DNA from: Candidatus Latescibacterota bacterium
GTDB taxonomy: Bacteria; Latescibacterota; UBA2968; UBA8231
Direction: 5' to 3'
DNA: 64,000 nt
NCBI GenBank assembly: GCA_965248265.1
Contig: CBDFJF010000002.1
Location: 3,840,001 to 3,904,000, forward strand
Both the position numbers and the translations under genes were made by a program. Under the pieces are notes generated by a model that was not told where the DNA came from, searched no databases, and saw only the letters and a list, made by a program, of their open reading frames with translations. Shown piece after piece: positions 48,922 to 64,000 of this stretch. Positions within the stretch are counted from its first letter, which is position 1. Every line of letters starts with the position of its first letter.

Positions 48922-49137
48922 ACCTGAACGTTCTCCTCTAATCTTCCCAGCGTCCGCGACGGAGTATCGGTTCGACGTGGGCGCACAATCAGATCGCCTC
49001 GAAGGGCACCAAGTCCAGTATGCCTGAGTGGAATCCATCGAGTGTTGTGAAATGGCGATCGTCCTGACCCTCGTTCCCTGAATCTGATTACCGGGCACTC
49101 GGCTGAAACTCGTGCGATTGGATTCCTTCCCGCGATT

Positions 49138-49340
49138 CCCGGGACTCCCTGAGGGGGGTCAGACCCCGGATCCGGTTTTCGGAGAGCTTGGACTACCGAT
49201 AAGATGTATTGCCGGTAGTATCGGACCGGTCTTCGCGGGTGACGGCGTGAGCGGGGACGGCCTCCCGCATCATCCCCGGGACTCCCTGAGGGGGTTTACA
49301 CCCCGGATCCGATTTTCGGAGAGCTTGGACTACCGATAAG
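49138..49340. repeat. Two 66-bp direct repeats (49138-49203 and 49275-49340) with internal hairpins
   Basis: CCCGGGACTCCCTGAGGGGG..ACCCCGGATCCG.TTTTCGGAGAGCTTGGACTACCGATAAG occurs twice with a 137-bp period. Confidence 0.9.
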
Positions 49341-55945: not shown

Positions 55946-58900
55946 ATGATAGCCAGACCCAAAGGCACTGCCAGGCGAGTAATCAAGGCCGTCGCGCTGG
56001 TCACAGCGGGCCTCGCGTTCCCAGCCACAGCTCAATTCTACGAGCGAGCTACCGCCTATCGAACACCCACACCCATCCAGATCGACGGTCAGCTCGATGA
56101 GGTCTCGTGGACCCTGGTCGCGCCCCTGGGACCGTTCAGAGATATAGAGTCGGGTGAAGCGGTGACTGCGACGACCTTGGCGCGCCTACTCTGGGACGAC
56201 GACAATCTTTACATAGCCTTTGAGTGCGAGGATGCTGACATCCAGGCCACGAAGACGGGTCGAGACCACAGACTCTTCGAGGAAGACGTGGTAAATATTA
56301 CACTGGGCTTGGCAACACAGGGTGAAGTCATCGACATCGAAATAAACCCTCTCAACGCTTTCAGCGATACGTACTATGCGGGGCGCTGGCAGGACGAAGA
56401 GGTGGATAGAGATTGGGACGCCGTGGGCATACAAACCGGCGTGCATGTAAGGGGCACGATTTCCGATTCCGAGGACCGGGACCAGAAATGGACCGTGGAA
56501 GTGGCAGTCCCCTGGCAACTCTTTGAATCTTTTGACCAAAGGAGTCGTCCTCTCCCCCCCACCGATGGAGATCTATGGCGCTTGGGTCTGTTCCGCGTCG
56601 AACGCTCCGCCACTGAAGGGGCCTTTGAGGCACAGGCTTGGTCTCCCACGAAAACCCTAAGTACTGGCTGGCCCGAACGATTTGGCGCCGTCCTTTTCTC
56701 CACCGCGACCGTGGCATTCGAACGGCCCGTTTTGACGCTCCAAGGTTTCCAGCTTGGCGGCCTTTCTGGTGCAGCACGGCACCGTGATTTGTCCGCCTCA
56801 GGCGGGGAACAGACGCTCAGACTTGTGCTCAGAAACCACGCGCCCCGTGCGACGGGCATGGTCACGGCTCTGCTGCGGAGCGAGAATCCCCTGGTAGCGG
56901 TGCTGGATTCGCTGGTCAACATCGGAACGATTGACGGCGAGACCGAGGTGCTGACCGATGCCTTCCGTGTCCAGGTCGGCGATGGCTATACAGCACAAAG
57001 GCCATTGCCGATGCTGCTCTTGCTCAAAGACAACGACGGCCGACGATGGATCGAGAGTCTGGACCTCTACCTCGACGGCATAGAAGACCGGCCTTACACG
57101 CTTGGCGACATCGAGGGTGAGAAGAAAATCACTCTGGTGAAGAAGTGGCGCTACCATGCCGCGACGACCTCTTATGGGCCGAGCCACACTACGACGATAG
57201 CGAGTGGGAGTTGGTCAACCCGCTGCTGTTACCCGGCAGCCTGCCTCAGGATGGTTGGCCGGGCCGCGGTTGGTTCCGCGTGCGCGTCGCCATCGACTCC
57301 ACCCTGTGGAATGTGCCCCTGGCCCTTGAGCACGTGCAGACAGGCGCATCTGAAATCTATCTGAACGGCCGACTTCTCTATTCTTCCGGCAAGATCGGAG
57401 CAGACCAAAACGAAGAAGAACCCTATGTGGAAATCTTCGCAGGGACTGATCCCAGATCGTTCATTTTCGATCGGCAATACGACCAGGTTATCGCCGTCCG
57501 CTATTCAAATCTCTCCCTCGATAAATTCCACTTGCACCACTTTCAGGGAGGGTTTGGTCTGGTCTTGGCAGACTTGAACGAGAGCATTGGCAATCGTGTC
57601 GAATGGGTCTCGAAGCAGAGAGTAGCACAAGCGATAACCACATCCGTCGCCGCGCTGCTTGCCCTCCTGCATTTGATGCTTTTTCTGTTTTACCCCAAGG
57701 CGCGGGAAAACCTCTACTACGCCATCGCGACGGCTCTTTTCGCGGTTTTCTTCTACTCCATCGTACAATGGTCCCGCGAGACGGATCCTGAGTTGATGTT
57801 CTACGGCTTCCATGTCATGGAAGTGTCCGTTTACCTTGCCCTCATCGCGACCCTACGCTTTGTGTATGCTGCTTTTTACGAGAGCTTGCCCAGGCTATTC
57901 TGGATCCTGTTCGCCTTGAGCCTGATTGCGAACATATTCGAATTCCACCGCGATAGTGGTCCCCCGCTCGCCATGGCTGCAAGTGTTCTGCTCCTAATCG
58001 CGGAGCTGTTGCGATCCATGTTCAAGCAGATCCTCGCTCGAAAACCAGATACGTGGATCATTGGCATGGGATTCCTCTGCTTGATGATGGGCATGGTCCA
58101 TTTCGTAATGGTTGTGTTTGACGTCATCTTGCCAATCGTTGACGGCCCTGCCCACCTCTGGGGCATGCTGGCACTGCTGGCATCGATGTCCGTTTACCTG
58201 ACCCGCACCATCGCTCAGACGAACAAGGACAGAGATTTTGTCCAGGGCGCCTTTGGCCAGTACCTCTCCCCCGCCGTTGTCGATGAGCTCATGGCCAACC
58301 CCGACATGGTCAACCAGCTCGGCGGTGAAGAGCGTGTCATGACTGCCCTGTTCTCCGACATCGCCAGTTTCTCTACCATCTCCGAGCGCCTCACCCCCGG
58401 CGAGCTCGTGCACTTCATCAACGAATATCTAAGTGAGATGTGCGCCATCATCGAAGAGTACGGCGGCACCATCGACAAGTTCGAGGGTGACGCTATTGTC
58501 GCGTTCTTCGGCGCACCCCTCCACTTCGACGACCATGCCGAGCGAGCCACCCGCGCCTGCCTTGATCAGCAGCAAAAATTGGTAGAATTGCGCCAGCGCT
58601 GGAACGAAGACGGAGCGTTACCCCCAGCGTTGTGCGAGTTGCGCTCCCAATGGCAGGCAGAAGGCCGCGTGTTCGCCCAGGTGCGCATGGGCCTGGCCGC
58701 CGGCCCAATGGTGGTGGGGAATATGGGCTCGCAGAACAGAACCGACTATACCATGATGGGCGATACGGTTAACCTGGCCGCCCGCTTTGAAAGCGGCCAG
58801 AAGATCTATGGCACCGATATCATGGTTAACGAACAGATCTACGAGCGGGTCAAAGAGCTGGTCGAGGCTCGCCAACTCGACGTGATCCAGGTGATGGGCA

Positions 58901-59157
58901 AAGAGGAGCCGGTAACGGCTTATGAGGTGCTGGCTCGCAAGGACCACCTGAGCGCAGAAAAGCGGGAGACGCTGGCCCTCTACAATCAGGGCTTGGCGGC
59001 CTACCACGCCTTCGAGTTCACCGAAGCGCTGCGACTCTTTGAGAAGGCGCTCGAACTGGACCCCCAGGATGGCCCTGCGCTGCTTTATGTTGATCGCTGC
59101 AAGGAATTCGCTGCGGATCCGCCGACAGATCTGGTTTTTCGGGCTCGGGCTAAGTAA
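55946..59157 (+). pseudogene. CBM9-like + 7TM + class III adenylate cyclase + TPR protein, split by a 1-nt deletion near 57161
   Basis: IDGQLDE..W, LWDDDNLY, WTVEVAVPW. KWRYHA continues into DDLLWAEPHYDDSEW only in another frame. Cyclase motifs FSDI, DKFEGD, DYTMMGDTVNLAARFES. Confidence 0.8.
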
Positions 59158-59191
59158 CTAACGCCTAAACAAAGCCGGGAGGTGGCACATC

Positions 59192-59280
59192 TCATAACAA
59201 GCGCGTTTCCGCTGCGCGGCTTGCGCCGCTTGGCCTCTGGCAACCCACTTTGTGGGTTCGGAAACGCCTGCACGTTATAT
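59192..59280 (+). other. attC site (branched family)
   Basis: TCATAAC..CGTTTCCG...CGGAAACG..GTTATAT. Confidence 0.85.
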
Positions 59281-59305
59281 GAAATTGAGAATAGGTGACC
59301 ACAAT

Positions 59306-59629
59306 ATGAGACTTCATGGCGTTTTAACTTGGTTCACAGCTAACCGACACGGACTGATTCTTGGCCTTGTTGTTGGCGTGATTGCTCCGCCGTTTCTTGC
59401 GATGTTCGGGCTTGTCATTGCGTCCCCTGAGGTTGTACGCCCCCTCCTTATCGGACCATTTGATCTCATGGGAAGCTTCATTCCTTCCGTCTTAACCTCA
59501 CCGAACAGCGGCTACATTCCCTGGTACAAGTGGATTCTGACTTTGGGATTTAACGGTATCTGTTATTCTATGTTGGGCGGAATTGTTCAAAGCGTCATCC
59601 GCTTCTGGGCCTCTACACGTGAACGGTAG
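59306..59629 (+). CDS. Hypothetical membrane protein (cassette, lower GC)
   Basis: ORF directly after an attC; hydrophobic segments. Confidence 0.6.
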   Translation: MRLHGVLTWFTANRHGLILGLVVGVIAPPFLAMFGLVIASPEVVRPLLIGPFDLMGSFIPSVLTSPNSGYIPWYKWILTLGFNGICYSMLGGIVQSVIRFWASTRER

Positions 59630-59639
59630 TCTCAAGGTC

Positions 59640-60953
59640 TGCAGCAACCGGGCTGATAGGTAACAGTCTAAACCGGGTTGATGGGTGACACTATTGTTTT
59701 GATTGAATTCACTCCCGTACGATCATGTCCCTCTCGTCGACGGTGGCTAGGAGGACGGTGTTGAAGTAGATGGCCCAGACGCCGTCGTCGATCTCCTCGA
59801 GACCGATGTCGAGATGCTTGAGAGACTGAGCGATGAAGATGAGCTTGTGGCCGAGGCGTATGGTCCCGGCTCGGGTGACGTGCTTGATGACGAAGTGACC
59901 GGGGTACTCAATGGTCGGCATGCGGCCGGGATAGGGCCGGGGTGATGGGTGGTACCGGGAGCCAGGAGTCTTGCCGTTGAGGGCGTCATGGGGACGCTCG
60001 TCGTTGTAGAGCTGTCGGAAGCGCTGGAAGGATCGCTGCTGGGCGGCCTTGTTGGCGGCGGGTGGCCGACAGGTAGCGGCCTTCAAGGTGCGATGCATGC
60101 GTTCGTGGGCGCCATTTTCCTGCGGCGATGCCGGGCGGATCCGCTGGTGCACGATGCCGAGCCTCATCCACCAAACGTTGAGTCGGCATAGCCCATGCAA
60201 TCCTCTGGAAGCAAAGGGAACGCCGTTGTCGGTGCGAATGGCCTGAGGCAGGCCGAATTCGCGGAAGGCTCTCTCGAAGACCGGACGCGCATGCAAGGTC
60301 TTGATGTCGGGCAGGGCGCGGCAGGTCAGGAGATAGCGAGTGTGCTGATCGCTGATGGTGAGAGGGAAACACCAAACTCCGTTCTTGGTAGGAAATTGGC
60401 CTTTGAAGTCGGCCGTCCACAGATCGTTGGGGTTGTCGGTGGTCGGCGGCACGGCTCCGGGGTGCTGACGTGGGCGTCGTCGTCGTCGCTTCTTCACCAG
60501 GCCTTCGCGCACCAGCAGATCGCCTGCCGTACTGACCGCCGGCCAGGAGCAGATGTGCGGATGTCGAGGCGCCAGCCAGTCCAACAGTTTGTTCGGTCCC
60601 CAATCGGGGTGCCGTGTGCGCGCTCCGAGAATGAGCTCGGCAATCTCTGGCGCCATGCGATGCGGACAGGTGTGGGGCGCGTGACTGCGGTCCTGTAACC
60701 CGGGCACCCCCTCTTCGGCGTGCCGCTGAAGCCACTTGTATCCGGTTTTGCGGCTGATCCCGTATCGCTCGCACAGCTCCGCTCTCGAGTAGTGCCCGCG
60801 CTGATCGTCGGCGATAAATCGCTTACGTTGTTCCATGGGTGCTGTCTCCATCCAGGGCATCGACCAACCTCCCAATTGGGGTTGGTCAAAAAGTAGAAGG
60901 AGTGTCACCCATCAACCCGGTCAGATGTGTTACCAATCTACCCGGTTTGTACC
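59640..60953 (-). mobile_element. IS481-family insertion sequence
   Basis: About 53-bp imperfect terminal IRs sharing AACCGGG..GAT.GGTAACA..ACCGGGTTGATGGGTGACACT; GTC flanks both ends (possible 3-bp TSD). Confidence 0.85.
59709..60860 (-). CDS. IS481-family DDE transposase
   Basis: MPWME..ELCERYGISRKTGYKW HTH; WTADFKG, TDNG.PF, NG.HERMHRTLK, YNDERPH. Confidence 0.93.
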   Translation of the reverse strand: MPWMETAPMEQRKRFIADDQRGHYSRAELCERYGISRKTGYKWLQRHAEEGVPGLQDRSHAPHTCPHRMAPEIAELILGARTRHPDWGPNKLLDWLAPRHPHICSWPAVSTAGDLLVREGLVKKRRRRRPRQHPGAVPPTTDNPNDLWTADFKGQFPTKNGVWCFPLTISDQHTRYLLTCRALPDIKTLHARPVFERAFREFGLPQAIRTDNGVPFASRGLHGLCRLNVWWMRLGIVHQRIRPASPQENGAHERMHRTLKAATCRPPAANKAAQQRSFQRFRQLYNDERPHDALNGKTPGSRYHPSPRPYPGRMPTIEYPGHFVIKHVTRAGTIRLGHKLIFIAQSLKHLDIGLEEIDDGVWAIYFNTVLLATVDERDMIVRE

Positions 60954-60962
60954 GTCAACTTC

Positions 60963-61053
60963 ACCTAACAGCGCGTTTTGCGCTGCGGCGCGTTCGCGCC
61001 TTGGCCTTCGCCAACCCGCATTCGCGGGTTCGCAAACCGGCAAACCGTTAGCC
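60963..61053 (+). other. attC site (branched family)
   Basis: ACCTAAC..GTTTTGCG...CGCAAAC..GTTAGCC. Confidence 0.87.
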
Positions 61054-61155
61054 GAAAGCAGGTAGAATTCATTGCGGAAGCGTATCGACTGAACCTTTAG
61101 TTCTCATCAGGGACCAATTTCACGATCCACGCTGTGCTTGACAGGGAGAGATTCT

Positions 61156-61608
61156 ATGTCGGCCATACATCACATTGGACTTCGCGTCTCGACCAGCGGT
61201 GAGCGGGCGAAGGGTTTTTACGACGCAGTGCTGGAGGGCCTGGGATTTTCGTCACCTTCAAGTAACGGGGTGTACCTAAAGGATGATCTGATTGTTCTGG
61301 TTGCTCCCGCAGAGCATAAGGAGAAACATAAACACGGAGCGATCGGTTTGGGCCATCTGGCTTTTTCGGTCGATTCACGGGAAGCAGTGGACACGTTTTA
61401 CAATGAAGTGCTTCTCAACCTGGATGGTGTCACTATCGAAGACCCACCAGTTGACTGCCCGGAGTACGGATACGAGGAGTACTACGCCACATTCTTCTAC
61501 GACGTAGACGGCATCAAACTGGAAGTTGTCTACTCAAAGGGGATTTGCACCTGGGCGGAAGCGGAGCCGGTTCGACCATTCAGGCGAAGTTCAGATCAAG
61601 CTTCGTAG
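61156..61608 (+). CDS. VOC/glyoxalase family protein (cassette)
   Basis: IHHIGLRV, HLAFSV.SR..VD, YYATFF.D.DGIKLEVV. Confidence 0.9.
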   Translation: MSAIHHIGLRVSTSGERAKGFYDAVLEGLGFSSPSSNGVYLKDDLIVLVAPAEHKEKHKHGAIGLGHLAFSVDSREAVDTFYNEVLLNLDGVTIEDPPVDCPEYGYEEYYATFFYDVDGIKLEVVYSKGICTWAEAEPVRPFRRSSDQAS

Positions 61609-61644
61609 GGCGCTCACTGCGGCAATGCAGAAGTTATCGCCTTC

Positions 61645-61737
61645 GGCTAACAACACGTTTGCCGCTGCGCCGCCCTTTGGGCGTCTTGGCCTGCGGCAAC
61701 TCGCTTCGCGAGTTCGGCAACCGGTGAAACGTTATCG
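61645..61737 (+). other. attC site (branched family)
   Basis: GGCTAAC..GTTTGCCG...CGGCAAC..GTTATCG. Confidence 0.88.
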
Positions 61738-61780
61738 GTAATGGGGTGATGCGGTTAGACCAACATGAGAGGAGGACAAA

Positions 61781-62077
61781 ATGTGGGGATGGAAAACAGT
61801 GGAGAGGCAGATCACCCCGAGTATCTCACTCGAGAACGCCCGGGACTTACTGATCGAGGAGGGCTTTTCCGAGCATGTTGCAAACCCAAACCATATCATC
61901 ATGAAGCGTTCCGGGACCCAGCTTGCCGTATCAGGCGAGAAGTTCCCCGTAGAGTTAGCGGTCGCGCAAGCAGAAACAGGTCTCTTTCTCCAGCTTCGAT
62001 ACGATACTTTTGCCCTGTTCGACACCGGAGACCTTGGTCGATTAGCCGACTCACTCGCCGAAAAGCTGTCCCAATAG
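61781..62077 (+). CDS. Hypothetical protein (cassette, 98 aa)
   Basis: GGAGG RBS; fills the cassette between two attCs. Confidence 0.7.
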   Translation: MWGWKTVERQITPSISLENARDLLIEEGFSEHVANPNHIIMKRSGTQLAVSGEKFPVELAVAQAETGLFLQLRYDTFALFDTGDLGRLADSLAEKLSQ

Positions 62078-62086
62078 CCCCACAAC

Positions 62087-62174
62087 CGATAACAGCACCG
62101 TTCGCGCGGCGCGCCGTTCGGCGCTTGGCCTTCGGCAACCGCTTCGCGGTTCGCAAACCGGCGAAACGTTATAC
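62087..62174 (+). other. attC site (branched family)
   Basis: CGATAAC..GTTCGCG...CGCAAAC..GTTATAC. Confidence 0.87.
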
Positions 62175-62192
62175 GAAATCCTTTGAGTGATC

Positions 62193-62729
62193 ATGTCAGA
62201 TAATCCCGCTGGCTGGTGTCTTGGCGGTAGCCATCCGAACGACTATGAAGTCGGAGTGGATAGAGATAAGGCTTATAGCGGTGGGGCCAGCGGCTTCATC
62301 AAGTGCACAACACCGAATCCGGCTGGCTTTGGTGCCCTTCATCAAGTATGCAAAGCGGATAAGTTTCTCGGACAACGTCTCAGAATGTCCGCATTCCTCG
62401 CAGCCAAATTCGTACAGAACTGGACAGGTCTCCTGCTCAGGGTGGACGGGATCGCTGGAAACCTATTGAGTTTCGACAACATGCAAGATAGGCCGCTTAG
62501 GGGATCCTTCGATTGGGAGAGTTTCGATGTAGTTCTAGATGTTCCACACGATGGCCATCGCATGACGTTCGGACTTCTCCTTGTTGGCCCCGGACAGGTT
62601 TGGGTTGACAGCTTTGCGTTCGAGCAAGTAGGGAGCGAGGTACCTACTACAGGAAGGGGCAAACGCCGGGCGGAGCTCAACCTTCCAGACGGACCGGTGA
62701 ATCTTGGCTTTGAGGATAGTCAGATGTAG
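62193..62729 (+). CDS. Stand-alone galactose-binding-like beta-sandwich domain protein (cassette)
   Basis: PAGW..GS.P.DY.VG.D, LRVD, FDNMQDRP..G..DW, VVLDVP, G.VW.D, NLGFE; a domain type usually fused to regulators or hydrolases. Confidence 0.7.
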   Translation: MSDNPAGWCLGGSHPNDYEVGVDRDKAYSGGASGFIKCTTPNPAGFGALHQVCKADKFLGQRLRMSAFLAAKFVQNWTGLLLRVDGIAGNLLSFDNMQDRPLRGSFDWESFDVVLDVPHDGHRMTFGLLLVGPGQVWVDSFAFEQVGSEVPTTGRGKRRAELNLPDGPVNLGFEDSQM

Positions 62730-62769
62730 TGGCTGCGTTGCTGATGAGAATGGTTAGCTCTGCGGCTTC

Positions 62770-62854
62770 GTATAACACGTCCGTGCCCGGCTTCGGGCGT
62801 ACGCCCTTCGCGCAATCCGCTTCGCGGGTTCGGGCGGCGGCGAAAACATTATGC
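62770..62854 (+). other. attC site with mutated crossover (ATT instead of GTT)
   Basis: GTATAAC..GCCCG...CGGGC..ATTATGC. Confidence 0.75.
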
Positions 62855-62895
62855 GAAGGCTTTGACCAAGATGCTATTTTCGTCTAGGAGGCAAG

Positions 62896-63348
62896 ATGCT
62901 CGATTCGTCCGGATTGGCTCCTTACCGCACGGTGCACACGGTTGCCGTGGCGCTATTGGCAACAGTTTGTGCAAGCCTGATCCATGCTGGGGTCCACTGG
63001 CTCCAACCTGAGTCGGCCCACGCTACGAGACTCTCAATGACTCCCATCCTTCCGTTTCTCGCCGCCTCGCTGTTTGCCGGAACCCGCGCCAAATTTAGGC
63101 ACGCACCTGAGGCGTTTCTGTGGCTCAACTCAATTATCTTGTCCGCAATCGGGGTTGGCGCGCGCGTCGGGCATGCAATTCTGAGCGACGGCCATTTCGC
63201 ACATCACATATATGTTGGAATCTCTTGGCCGTTTCTGGCAGTCATCACGTTTCAGTTTGGATTGGCGTCTGCTCTCTTTTTCGGGCTTGGATTTGGTTCG
63301 TGGCGACTATCAAAACGCGTGGGGGTGAATCCGCACCATCCTGACTGA
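62896..63348 (+). CDS. Hypothetical 4-TM membrane protein (cassette)
   Basis: AGGAGG RBS; hydrophobic segments; lies between attCs. Confidence 0.7.
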   Translation: MLDSSGLAPYRTVHTVAVALLATVCASLIHAGVHWLQPESAHATRLSMTPILPFLAASLFAGTRAKFRHAPEAFLWLNSIILSAIGVGARVGHAILSDGHFAHHIYVGISWPFLAVITFQFGLASALFFGLGFGSWRLSKRVGVNPHHPD

Positions 63349-63419
63349 GACCTGGTTCAGCCTTCTCGAATCGAGGTGCTGACCATGGCGGAACGACCTG
63401 CGCGAGTTGGGAAGCCATC

Positions 63420-63502
63420 GCATAACACCGTGCCCCCGGCTACGGCGCGTTCGCGCCTTCGCCCAACCGCTACGCGGTTCAGGGACACGAGAACCGTTAT
63501 GA
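63420..63502 (+). other. attC site (branched family)
   Basis: GCATAAC-AC-CGTGCCCC...GGGACACG-AGAACC-GTTATGA. Confidence 0.85.
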
Positions 63503-63723
63503 GAAATGCCCAACTAATACTATCGCTTGTTCCACTGAACTACCAATGGCACGTTTCCATCAGGGGTACTTTATACGTCGACAGAAGAAGCAGATGATCA
63601 CATCAAATGCCGGGCTGGAAAGATGGGTCGCACATGGTATAGAGCGTAGATGAAAGGCATTTTTGCTGGGTCAATGGGATCGATTCCGTTTTTGTAGTTC
63701 AATCACGCGTTTGCAGGCGAAAA

Positions 63724-64000
63724 ATGATGTTGCCGAAAGCATACAAAAGCTTAAACCGCTTTTCAAAATGGATGATGGCTCTATCGCTCCCCTTTGTTAT
63801 TACAGGGTTGGTGTTCGTCGTGCATACCTATTTCTTCCTTCAGCAGGTAGTGCCTGGCAAGGGTACCATCATACAGTTGATGGAAAGACCCAATGATGCT
63901 GGCGACATGCTCTATGCCGCCGTCTTCACTTTTTTCGATGCCGACGGACAACAGCACAAGATCGTCTCGTCGACCGCTAGTAATCCTCCCATTGGTGATG
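63724..64000 (+). CDS. DUF3592-like membrane protein, partial (runs off the window; not in the ORF track)
   Basis: MMLPKAYK..TM..GKGTIIQL..YAAVFTFFDADGQQH..SSTASNPP. Confidence 0.7.
   Translation, partial: MMLPKAYKSLNRFSKWMMALSLPFVITGLVFVVHTYFFLQQVVPGKGTIIQLMERPNDAGDMLYAAVFTFFDADGQQHKIVSSTASNPPIGD

Follow-up and report, generated by a model that had tools for sequence, protein, structure and literature searches.

Six attC-type sites, all on the + strand, lie between positions 59188 and 63506 of a 64,000-nt stretch of a Candidatus Latescibacterota genome (the window, from here on; it lies on contig C2 of the assembly). Judged by their sequences, these repeats are recombination sites of gene cassettes, and their fold is a conserved DNA junction with four arms. 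An initial annotation of the window had picked out six related sites at this place, and there they are. Behind them, we think it likely, stands an integron-type cassette system with a site geometry of its own and an integrase that lacks the IntI hallmark. What carries this reading is the architecture of the sites, the boundaries of the cassettes, the strand bias of the hairpin loops and a link between sites, attI and integrase, all of which we observe, the link in two phyla.

Copies of the sites were collected by iterated nhmmer and then with a covariance model, R1. From box to box a site measures about 80 to 90 nt, beginning with xTAAC and finishing with GTTAx (sites 1 to 4 and 6); in site 5 the right-hand box is ATTA, not GTTA, and the end reads ATTAT. 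A small + strand open reading frame (ORF) precedes the sites by 11 to 72 nt, the exception being site 1, which follows a 670-aa signalling gene. The sites are listed here with their R1 scores and, from site 3 on, with the complementarity of the left flank to the right flank of the site before.

59188 to 59284, + strand: attC-type site 1, 92.3 bits; directly 3′ of an adenylate-cyclase gene and the first site of the array in the window
60959 to 61057, + strand: attC-type site 2, 102.2 bits
61641 to 61741, + strand: attC-type site 3, 87.3 bits; left flank complementary to the right flank of site 2 at 6/7
62083 to 62178, + strand: attC-type site 4, 93.3 bits; flank match to site 3, 5/7; fold z +0.1 to +0.2
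62766 to 62858, + strand: attC-type site 5, short form without hairpin M, 41.9 bits; flank match to site 4, 6/7
63416 to 63506, + strand: attC-type site 6, short form without hairpin M, 43.7 bits; flank match to site 5, 6/7

The array runs past the window to about C2:3907700. [quoted passage not shown]

A junction with four arms

The outer boxes pair as a 4-bp R stem (TAAC/GTTA), within which lies a 9-bp L stem, and above it stand three hairpins: A (5 bp), M (3 bp) and B (7 bp, AA/TT extension included). Together with the L stem, hairpins A, M and B form a four-way junction; M is absent from the short form. Three of the hairpins quoted in the initial annotation sit in the sites just as it gave them (CCCAC-TTT-GTGGG in site 1, CTCGC-TTC-GCGAG in site 3 and CCGC-TAC-GCGG in site 6). 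Two of its details had to be redrawn. GGCGCG-TT-CGCGCC is now read as GGCGC-GTTC-GCGCC, with a 4-nt loop, in sites 2 and 6, and what was taken for a TTGGCC..CAA linker is, in sites 1 to 4, itself the third mini-hairpin, GCC-TTC-GGC, which sites 5 and 6 do without.

Twelve copies from the window's genome, aligned with MAFFT without using the structure, have 91.9% of the cells paired, against 23 to 44% for slid partners, and 12 of the 28 pairs vary on both sides, a count reached in 0 of 500 shuffles. The R1 model was built only from the window's genome; with it, 94 sites (93 distinct) were gathered from that genome and 16 relatives. Their alignment has 94.5% of cells paired, and here, to our disadvantage, fitting the alignment to the model inflates pairing, yet slid partners still give 28 to 44%. 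Among the distinct sites 26 of the 28 pairs vary on both sides (A 5/5, M 3/3, B 7/7, L 8/9, with 90.8% of the cells of the nine L pairs paired), which bears out the compensatory stem changes that had been noticed between copies. The TAAC/GTTA pairs are retained in 84 to 89 of the 93 at each position. Minimum-energy folding agrees with the covariation: a closed multiloop is found in 80 of the 94 sites on the top strand and 78 on the bottom strand, a single hairpin in 2 and 1. Linear stems are not the favoured fold, and the multiway junction that had been proposed in place of one long stem stands.

Single-site folds with DNA parameters give branched or multi-hairpin minimum-energy structures on both strands of all six window sites. 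Site 1 shows a closing stem and three hairpins on either strand, and the bottom strand of site 6 a three-way junction. Against shuffles, the z values for sites 1 to 6 are −4.9, −2.2, −2.5, +0.1, +0.7 and −2.6 on the bottom strand and −4.4, −2.5, −1.6, +0.2, +0.1 and −1.3 on the top, which leaves site 5, for one, at shuffle level. Because only some of the single sites beat their shuffles, fold energy says little by itself, and the case rests on comparing copies.

The two arms of a site are not equal. Across the 94 sites the spacer between the R and L stems is 3 to 4 nt long on the left arm and 6 to 7 nt on the right, and the L stem keeps an unbulged length of 9 nt in 82 sites when counted on the left arm and in 90 when counted on the right. 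The left arm (R′′-L′′) is the shorter by 2 to 4 nt in 87 of the 94 sites, and by 3 nt in 55 of 59 sites from Paenibacillus, of which more below. By eye, two covarying base pairs form a mini-helix within the spacers; on the left arm a single base of variable identity bulges out, opposite a T-rich bulge of 5 nt on the bottom strand.

Between the L′′ arm and hairpin A stands a linker, CTGC (more rarely CGGC, CTAC or CTTC; window positions 59211 to 59214 are an example), which is nearly invariant in Latescibacterota and Paenibacillus alike. Its bottom-strand reading is GCAG, which the adjoining letters extend to GCGCAGC. One site elsewhere in the genome, C1:779762-779849, has no right spacer at all, its GTTA box following directly on the L′ arm; it may be the product of an exchange at a secondary position.

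Loops on one strand

The letters in the loops differ between strands, GNA or GNAT being characteristic of the bottom strand. In hairpin M, 42 of 53 triloops read GNA on the bottom strand (31 of them as C-GAA-G), against one on the top; in hairpin B the figures are 39 of 45 and none. Hairpin A has tetraloops in 63 of the 94 sites, with GAAT (16), GAAA (8), GTAT (6) and GAAC (6) on the bottom strand, and 20 of the GNNA type. As a heptamer, GCGNAGC is counted 65 times on bottom strands, where 50 of the 94 sites contribute, and is absent from the top strands. Some of the GCGCAGC instances stem from the near-invariant CTGC linker and not from a hairpin loop. For CGNAG the counts are 237 bottom and 29 top. 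The strand specificity that the initial annotation saw in a few loops thus extends to the family. Five of the six window sites carry GCGNAGC on the bottom strand, the sole instance in site 1 being the GCGCAGC of the junction linker. GCGNAGC and GCGNNAGC are described as extraordinarily stable mini-hairpins, the stability of GNA triloops varying with the closing pair (accessible text of PMC13037366 and PMC3201870).

Computed with nearest-neighbour DNA parameters, a set that may or may not include a bonus for GNA loops, stability favours the bottom strand in 79 of the 94 sites, and by only 1.5 kcal/mol on average. That the GNA loops act as folding nuclei is plausible, if unproven; they might also decide which strand is used.

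A word on orientation belongs here. Of the 30 R1 sites in the window's genome, 29 are found on the + strand of the contig concerned, and nearly all lie where, by cumulative GC skew, the + strand has a negative skew. Tentatively, from skew in a two-contig assembly, the bottom strands of R1 sites would be on the lagging-strand template. Loot 2017 reports the opposite orientation in 25 of 30 sedentary chromosomal integrons; the lagging-strand-template orientation is described there as favouring folding and going with small arrays.

Cassette ends and a putative attI

Exchange inside the right-hand box predicts that the left flank of a site should be complementary to the right flank of the site before it. 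Over 7 nt the mean complementarity of such neighbours is 4.56, with at least 5 matches in 42 of 62 pairs; within the window the five pairs score 4, 6, 5, 6 and 6. Set against its own right flank, a left flank scores a mean of 2.80 (n = 93), and random sites give 2.73, with at least 5 matches in 154 of 2000.

One cassette is present twice in the genome, once after an attC at C1:779840-781951 and once as the first cassette beside the integrase gene described below, at C1:1755323-1756120. In both copies the identity runs from G|TTA to GTTA|. These boundaries settle the orientation: as in classical cassettes, an ORF and the site downstream of it go together. As in integrons, the predicted crossover falls at the G|TT of the right-hand box, and with cassettes that end there the description of the repeats as attC-type recombination sites has held up. 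The C1:779840 copy is itself broken by a 1.3-kb insertion (C1:780014-781324) with ACAG on both sides. We also considered a flipped orientation, in which the − strand would be the true top strand and a site would lie upstream of its ORF, because the arm asymmetry is reversed. This was ruled out: the duplicate cassette keeps its site with the upstream ORF and ends in GTTA|, and the attI junctions show the first ORF separating attI from the first site.

Upstream of the integrase gene, six Latescibacterota genomes can be aligned as far as an inverted repeat, 6 nt and GTTA; nothing is shared beyond. The repeat, of 8 to 9 bp, varies on both arms (ATGCGAAC/GTTCGCAT in one version, ACCCGAAC/GTTCGGGT in another). 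In the window's genome the point of divergence is the left end of the duplicate cassette. The feature is thus:

C1:1755285-1755327 (L016:3286-3328): putative attI; inverted repeat of 8 to 9 bp with a loop of 4 to 5 nt, separated from GTTA by 6 nt

Its layout is like that of L′ arm, spacer and R′ box in an attC site, and, given that the repeat covaries among the six genomes, attI may itself fold. At 14 Paenibacillus loci the stretch downstream of the integrase gene is conserved as far as GTTA-NNN-GAAA and then diverges. The first cassette beside the integrase (C1:1755446-1755991, L016:3447-3992) encodes an HTH_3/MqsA-like, antitoxin-type protein.

These ends bear on another explanation, in which the sites are dispersed structured repeats (of the repetitive extragenic palindrome, REP, or miniature inverted-repeat transposable element, MITE, type) or else terminators or stabilisers of transcripts, and no cassette moves. 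The sites do lie close behind ORFs, the structure could form equally well in a transcript, and sites 4 and 5 taken singly fold at shuffle level. But the flanks are complementary between neighbouring sites and not within a site, an identical cassette is bounded at G|TT in two contexts, the attI junctions are conserved and arrays lie beside a tyrosine recombinase. The stable GNA loops, moreover, are on the non-coding strand and so are absent from mRNA, and an Rfam scan of positions 58000 to 64000, with E up to 1, gave no match (Rfam does not contain the attC covariance model of IntegronFinder). We give this explanation very little credence.

An integrase without the insertion

A TIGR02249 search of the window's genome found no protein above the cut-off, hence no canonical IntI. 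The enzyme that we put forward is encoded on the other contig:

C1:1754213-1755118, − strand: candidate integrase, 296 to 301 aa; 0.9 kb from a five-site R1 array and divergent from it

Canonical IntI carries an IntI-specific insertion of about 35 to 40 residues (the I2 helix region, near patch III) that contacts extrahelical bases of attC, and IntegronFinder requires the IntI-specific domain. The candidate's best sequence match in the PDB is the Vibrio cholerae integrase VchIntIA (2a3v, E 2.6e-47), in a two-piece alignment that sets 19 residues opposite VchIntIA residues 175-235 (61 residues). It scores 239.6 bits with TIGR02249, under the cut-off of 265, profile positions 178-232 going unmatched, and it is also below the Xer cut-offs (XerA NF040815, 207.3 vs 220; XerC, 173 vs 335; XerD, 171 vs 330). 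Aligned with six canonical IntI of relatives, the candidate and its clade lack an insertion of about 29 residues with an LPxALxRKYP-type motif and a second of about 10. In an AlphaFold model (mean predicted local distance difference test, pLDDT, 82.6) a short hairpin is all that lies between helices 181-194 and 212-226, with no extra helix; when folds are compared, 2a3v once more comes first (E 4e-17, 34% identity) and XerA next. R145, K170/K173, H235, R238, H261 and Y270 are invariant in 28 aligned homologs, and we read them as the probable catalytic set. That a distinct recombinase might serve these sites had been raised at the outset; with an insertion-less integrase beside R1 arrays and an attI, its involvement is very likely.

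Among named relatives, the integrases closest to the candidate, 86% and 85% identical, are in 'Candidatus Latescibacterota' genomes, and homologs of 45 to 60% identity are found in Clostridia, Paenibacillus, Bacteroidota and other groups. Those of Clostridia, Bacteroidota and others (loci L065-L136) are widespread and many have long N-terminal extensions; R1 gives only weak single matches near a few of them (L066, L081, L084, L085 and L092). A quick maximum-likelihood tree of 89 recombinases separates the canonical IntI of the relatives (support 100), the array-linked Latescibacterota clade (100) and a Paenibacillus clade (99). The backbone that joins the three groups has no resolution, and long branches lead to the Xer outgroup; the insertion-less form may be either ancestral or derived.

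An enzyme of this build lends itself to another reading, namely that the short integrase does move the cassettes, yet acts on double-stranded sites in the manner of Xer, the hairpins being protein-binding palindromes or cruciform-prone spacers. It has no I2 region, which Escudero and colleagues link to single-strand recombination (accessible text of PMC4792948 and PMC7790495); attI contains a palindrome; and the L stem is unbulged in 82 to 90 of the 94 sites, depending on the arm. What speaks against this reading is the way in which stems covary while their sequences drift, which fits selection for intrastrand pairing and not for a fixed duplex sequence. The loop letters, too, are strand-specific, and arms that differ by 2 to 4 nt in 87 of 94 sites are relevant only when the site is folded. 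We regard double-stranded sites as decidedly improbable.

Sites and integrases across genomes

The window's genome (G000) has 30 copies of R1. A survey of this genome and 80 relatives, 81 genomes in all, found R1 sites in 39, a canonical IntI above the cut-off in 11 and two-piece, insertion-less matches in 15. Nine of the 11 canonical-IntI genomes have 0 or 1 R1 sites; the other two, G021 and G008, have 39 and 18. The short integrase gene lies 0.8 to 1.4 kb from an R1 array, and divergent from it, in G000, G002, G010, G015, G018 and G026, and across a gap of 5 kb in G068. In a sample of 13 Latescibacterota families, genomes at least 85% complete had R1 in 64 of 140 cases, spread over 6 families. 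Around the canonical intI genes of relatives, six loci gave 0 R1 matches with E up to 1, and an attC search there gave one clear short linear site in the six, too little for a contrast within the phylum. This is L062:1132-1190 (in G020), an attC of 59 nt that forms a linear stem with two bulged bases; the canonical IntI gene is 0.8 kb away, and both integron types are thereby placed in the same family of organisms.

The initial annotation had supposed a system peculiar to this lineage. That was too narrow, for the same architecture is found in Paenibacillus. R1 matches arrays in 15 of 16 Paenibacillus integrase loci, the arrays lying directly downstream of the integrase gene and on the same strand. 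Their 59 sites have the same order of elements, shared motifs, the same 28 pairs with covariation and four-way-junction folds; the bottom-strand loops read GAAT, GTAT or GCAT. One locus has the integrase followed by seven + strand ORFs, with five of its six R1 sites 20 to 50 bp after an ORF. In one Paenibacillus genus 84 of 93 genomes have R1 matches (E up to 1e-6), and all five Paenibacillus genomes tested have insertion-less integrases only, with no IntI above the cut-off. The layout varies: in the Paenibacillus loci, G064 and G021 the integrase is upstream of the array and co-directional with it, whereas in the clade of the window's genome the two are divergent. IntegronFinder 2.0 lists one complete integron and 'a few CALIN' in Firmicutes, in the accessible part of its paper (PMC9024848); set beside 84 of 93 genomes, this suggests that most Paenibacillus R1 sites have been missed by it.

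It is here that a more conventional account has to be met. These might be ordinary attC sites of ordinary integrons, moved by a canonical IntI that resides in other community members or has been lost here, with a branched core that is neutral and a short recombinase that is unrelated, Xer-like for instance or from a mobile element. Canonical attC sites are known to include branched terminal structures and GAA loops, the Vibrio cholerae repeat (VCR) was little affected by loss of its core (accessible text of PMC2727003), and R1 sites and a canonical IntI do occur together in G021 and G008. On the other hand, the sites are scarce where canonical IntI is found, both in 9 of the 11 genomes and at the six loci. 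Neither the window's genome nor any of the five Paenibacillus genomes tested has a canonical IntI, although 84 of 93 genomes of that genus carry the sites. In both phyla the short integrase has as its neighbour a conserved attI that ends in a sharp junction with the cassettes, and the core structure and loop letters are conserved between the two, unlike a neutral region. We consider this account unlikely.

Several observations weigh against our own reading, a cassette system served by the insertion-less integrase and acting on folded sites. Besides the fitted alignment, there are sites 4 and 5, at chance level on fold energy alone, and an energy advantage of the bottom strand that is small, the top strand being the more stable in 14 of the 94 sites and in 19 of the 59 from Paenibacillus. 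G021 and G008 are R1-rich and have a canonical IntI, so the canonical enzyme may act on R1 sites. Ten of the 20 genomes with at least 10 R1 matches have no short integrase at the survey threshold; a protein search in five of the ten found an intact, 54%-identical homolog upstream of the array in G064, a partial homolog beside the array in G021, fragments beside sites in G032, fragments only in G078 and nothing close in G048. Array-linked integrase genes are broken in G002, G010, G026 and G032. The loci in the relatives may share one ancestral position, in which case the Latescibacterota examples are not independent. Finally, deletion of the branched core of VCR barely altered recombination by IntI1 (Bouvier 2009, accessible text of PMC2727003).

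Relation to known integrons

In much of its organisation the system resembles canonical integrons. Cassettes of one ORF plus one site share an orientation, the outer boxes are of the RYYYAAC/GTTRRRY kind, the crossover would be at G|TT, an attI lies by the integrase and additional arrays are found elsewhere. Most ORFs are small and have no known family, and the antitoxin-like first cassette recalls the toxin-antitoxin cassettes of large chromosomal integrons. The integrase, unlike theirs, is without the IntI-specific insertion and under the TIGR02249 cut-off, and the core of R1 is a conserved junction, not a variable region.

How far are the sites themselves new? In its accessible text, Bouvier 2009 (PMC2727003) gives attC terminal structures that range from 3 nt to 'complex branched', and a 5′-GAA triplet on the bottom strand of attCereA2 and attCaadA1, so that branching and GAA loops as such are not. 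In attCaadA1 and attCereA2 the bottom-strand GAA loop is likewise closed by C-G, yet it is a single loop on a linear stem, whereas R1 sites have two or three such loops on separate hairpins; changing GAA to TTC in attCaadA1 reduced IntI1 binding in vitro, as cited in the same text. VCR and other long attC sites (Bouvier 2009; Loot 2017) share a branched fold above the L stem. There, as far as those accessible texts go, the branching is predicted, lies in the variable region and has minor effects when deleted; in R1 two phyla share the hairpins, the sequence in which they come, linkers such as CTGC and the letters of the loops, all conserved and covarying. Bouvier 2009 also places the extrahelical bases (a G in L′′ and a T 6 to 8 nt on) on the R′′-L′′ arm, which is the longer in VCR, 34 vs 31 nt, with a central spacer of 5 + 5 nt (PMC2727003, same text). 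In R1 that left arm is the shorter, the reverse of VCR, and the longer arm expected to carry extrahelical bases is not seen.

The claim that the family stands apart from described attC sites has accordingly survived in part. The branched core and the GAA loop are in print (accessible text of PMC2727003); for a conserved junction paired with an insertion-less integrase we found no description in open-access papers and preprints. Comparable too is the 'integron-like' subgroup of simple tyrosine recombinases of Smyshlyaev 2021 (PMC8138268): in our tree the integrase falls with canonical IntI in one unresolved group, and for the insertion-less members the accessible text of that paper reports no recombination sites, attI or cassette arrays. 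Cury 2016, in its accessible part, finds 50 of 18,808 non-IntI recombinases near attC sites, concludes that they 'are not IntI' and reports CALIN in Firmicutes; its supplements list 21 recombinases without the IntI region beside attC sites, which may bear on priority. Ghaly 2021 has taxon-specific attC models for 11 taxa, which, in the accessible part of the paper, include neither Latescibacterota nor the Paenibacillus group.

The array and its neighbours

The remaining features of the array, in order, are these.

57145 to 59157, + strand: flanking chromosomal gene, 670 aa, with 7TMR-DISM, adenylate/guanylate cyclase and TPR matches in Pfam; left border of the array, outside the system
59306 to 59629, + strand: cassette ORF, 107 aa; no Pfam family
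59640 to 60954, − strand: IS481-family insertion sequence; transposase at 59709-60908, Pfam rve, rve_3 and LZ_Tnp_IS481
61138 to 61608, + strand: cassette ORF of the glyoxalase/bleomycin-resistance/dioxygenase superfamily (PF00903, E 3.3e-5)
61781 to 62077, + strand: cassette ORF, 98 aa; no Pfam family
62187 to 62729, + strand: cassette ORF, 180 aa; no Pfam family
62896 to 63348, + strand: cassette ORF, 150 aa; no Pfam family

An R1 scan found no site 5′ of the 57145-59157 gene within the window. Among the cassette ORFs, three are without any Pfam family, and the one truncated by the window's end has a sub-cut-off Pfam match only. The IS481-family element lies within the second cassette, its insertion point some 11 nt upstream of the site 2 TAAC box. 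It has nine copies in the genome, four of which end 4 to 6 nt before an R1 site, in the same orientation and about 11 nt upstream of the TAAC box (site 2 of the window, C1:966966, C1:1011481 and C1:1758789), as if the element preferred the left flank of R1 sites as its target. Further off, at window positions 49135 to 49340, a 69-nt sequence stands twice in direct orientation, the copies being 93% identical with 137 nt between them; it is unrelated to the attC family.

How the system might work, and what it would mean

Put together, the pieces suggest the following. For the array in the window the enzyme would act in trans, from a gene at another array of the same genome (C1, about 1.755 Mb); it is a tyrosine recombinase whose closest relative of solved structure is the Vibrio integron integrase, and it is without the IntI-specific insertion. 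Cassettes would be inserted at the conserved attI by the integrase gene, strands being exchanged at the G|TT of the right-hand box. The bottom strand is probably the one recombined, presumably in folded, single-stranded form, and the three capped hairpins may speed or bias its folding. The altered geometry of the arms might then take the place of the contacts between extrahelical bases and I2.

From there we lean, by somewhat more than an even chance, towards a bolder proposal: that this is a second integron lineage, its integrase insertion-less (having either never had I2 or lost it), its attC a four-way junction with GNA-type loops on the recombined strand, and its junction geometry and mini-hairpins a replacement for extrahelical bases and I2. 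Integron detection and theory rest on the IntI-specific domain, and the I2 helix is presented as the innovation that allowed single-stranded recombination. If the proposal is right, many arrays filed as orphan CALIN, or missed altogether, have a cognate enzyme. The sites themselves are a natural DNA junction with strand asymmetry written in its hairpin loops, and as such are relevant to structure-specific recombination tools.

For the organisms, the second lineage would be common in Latescibacterota and nearly universal in a large genus of Paenibacillus, although Firmicutes are held to be almost free of integrons, and Gram-positive soil bacteria would harbour large, unrecognised pools of cassettes. 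Should the insertion-less form prove to be the older, the step from Xer recombinases to integron integrases would have a living intermediate. And, since there are cultivable, non-pathogenic Paenibacillus carriers, the question of how an integrase came to read folded DNA would become testable.

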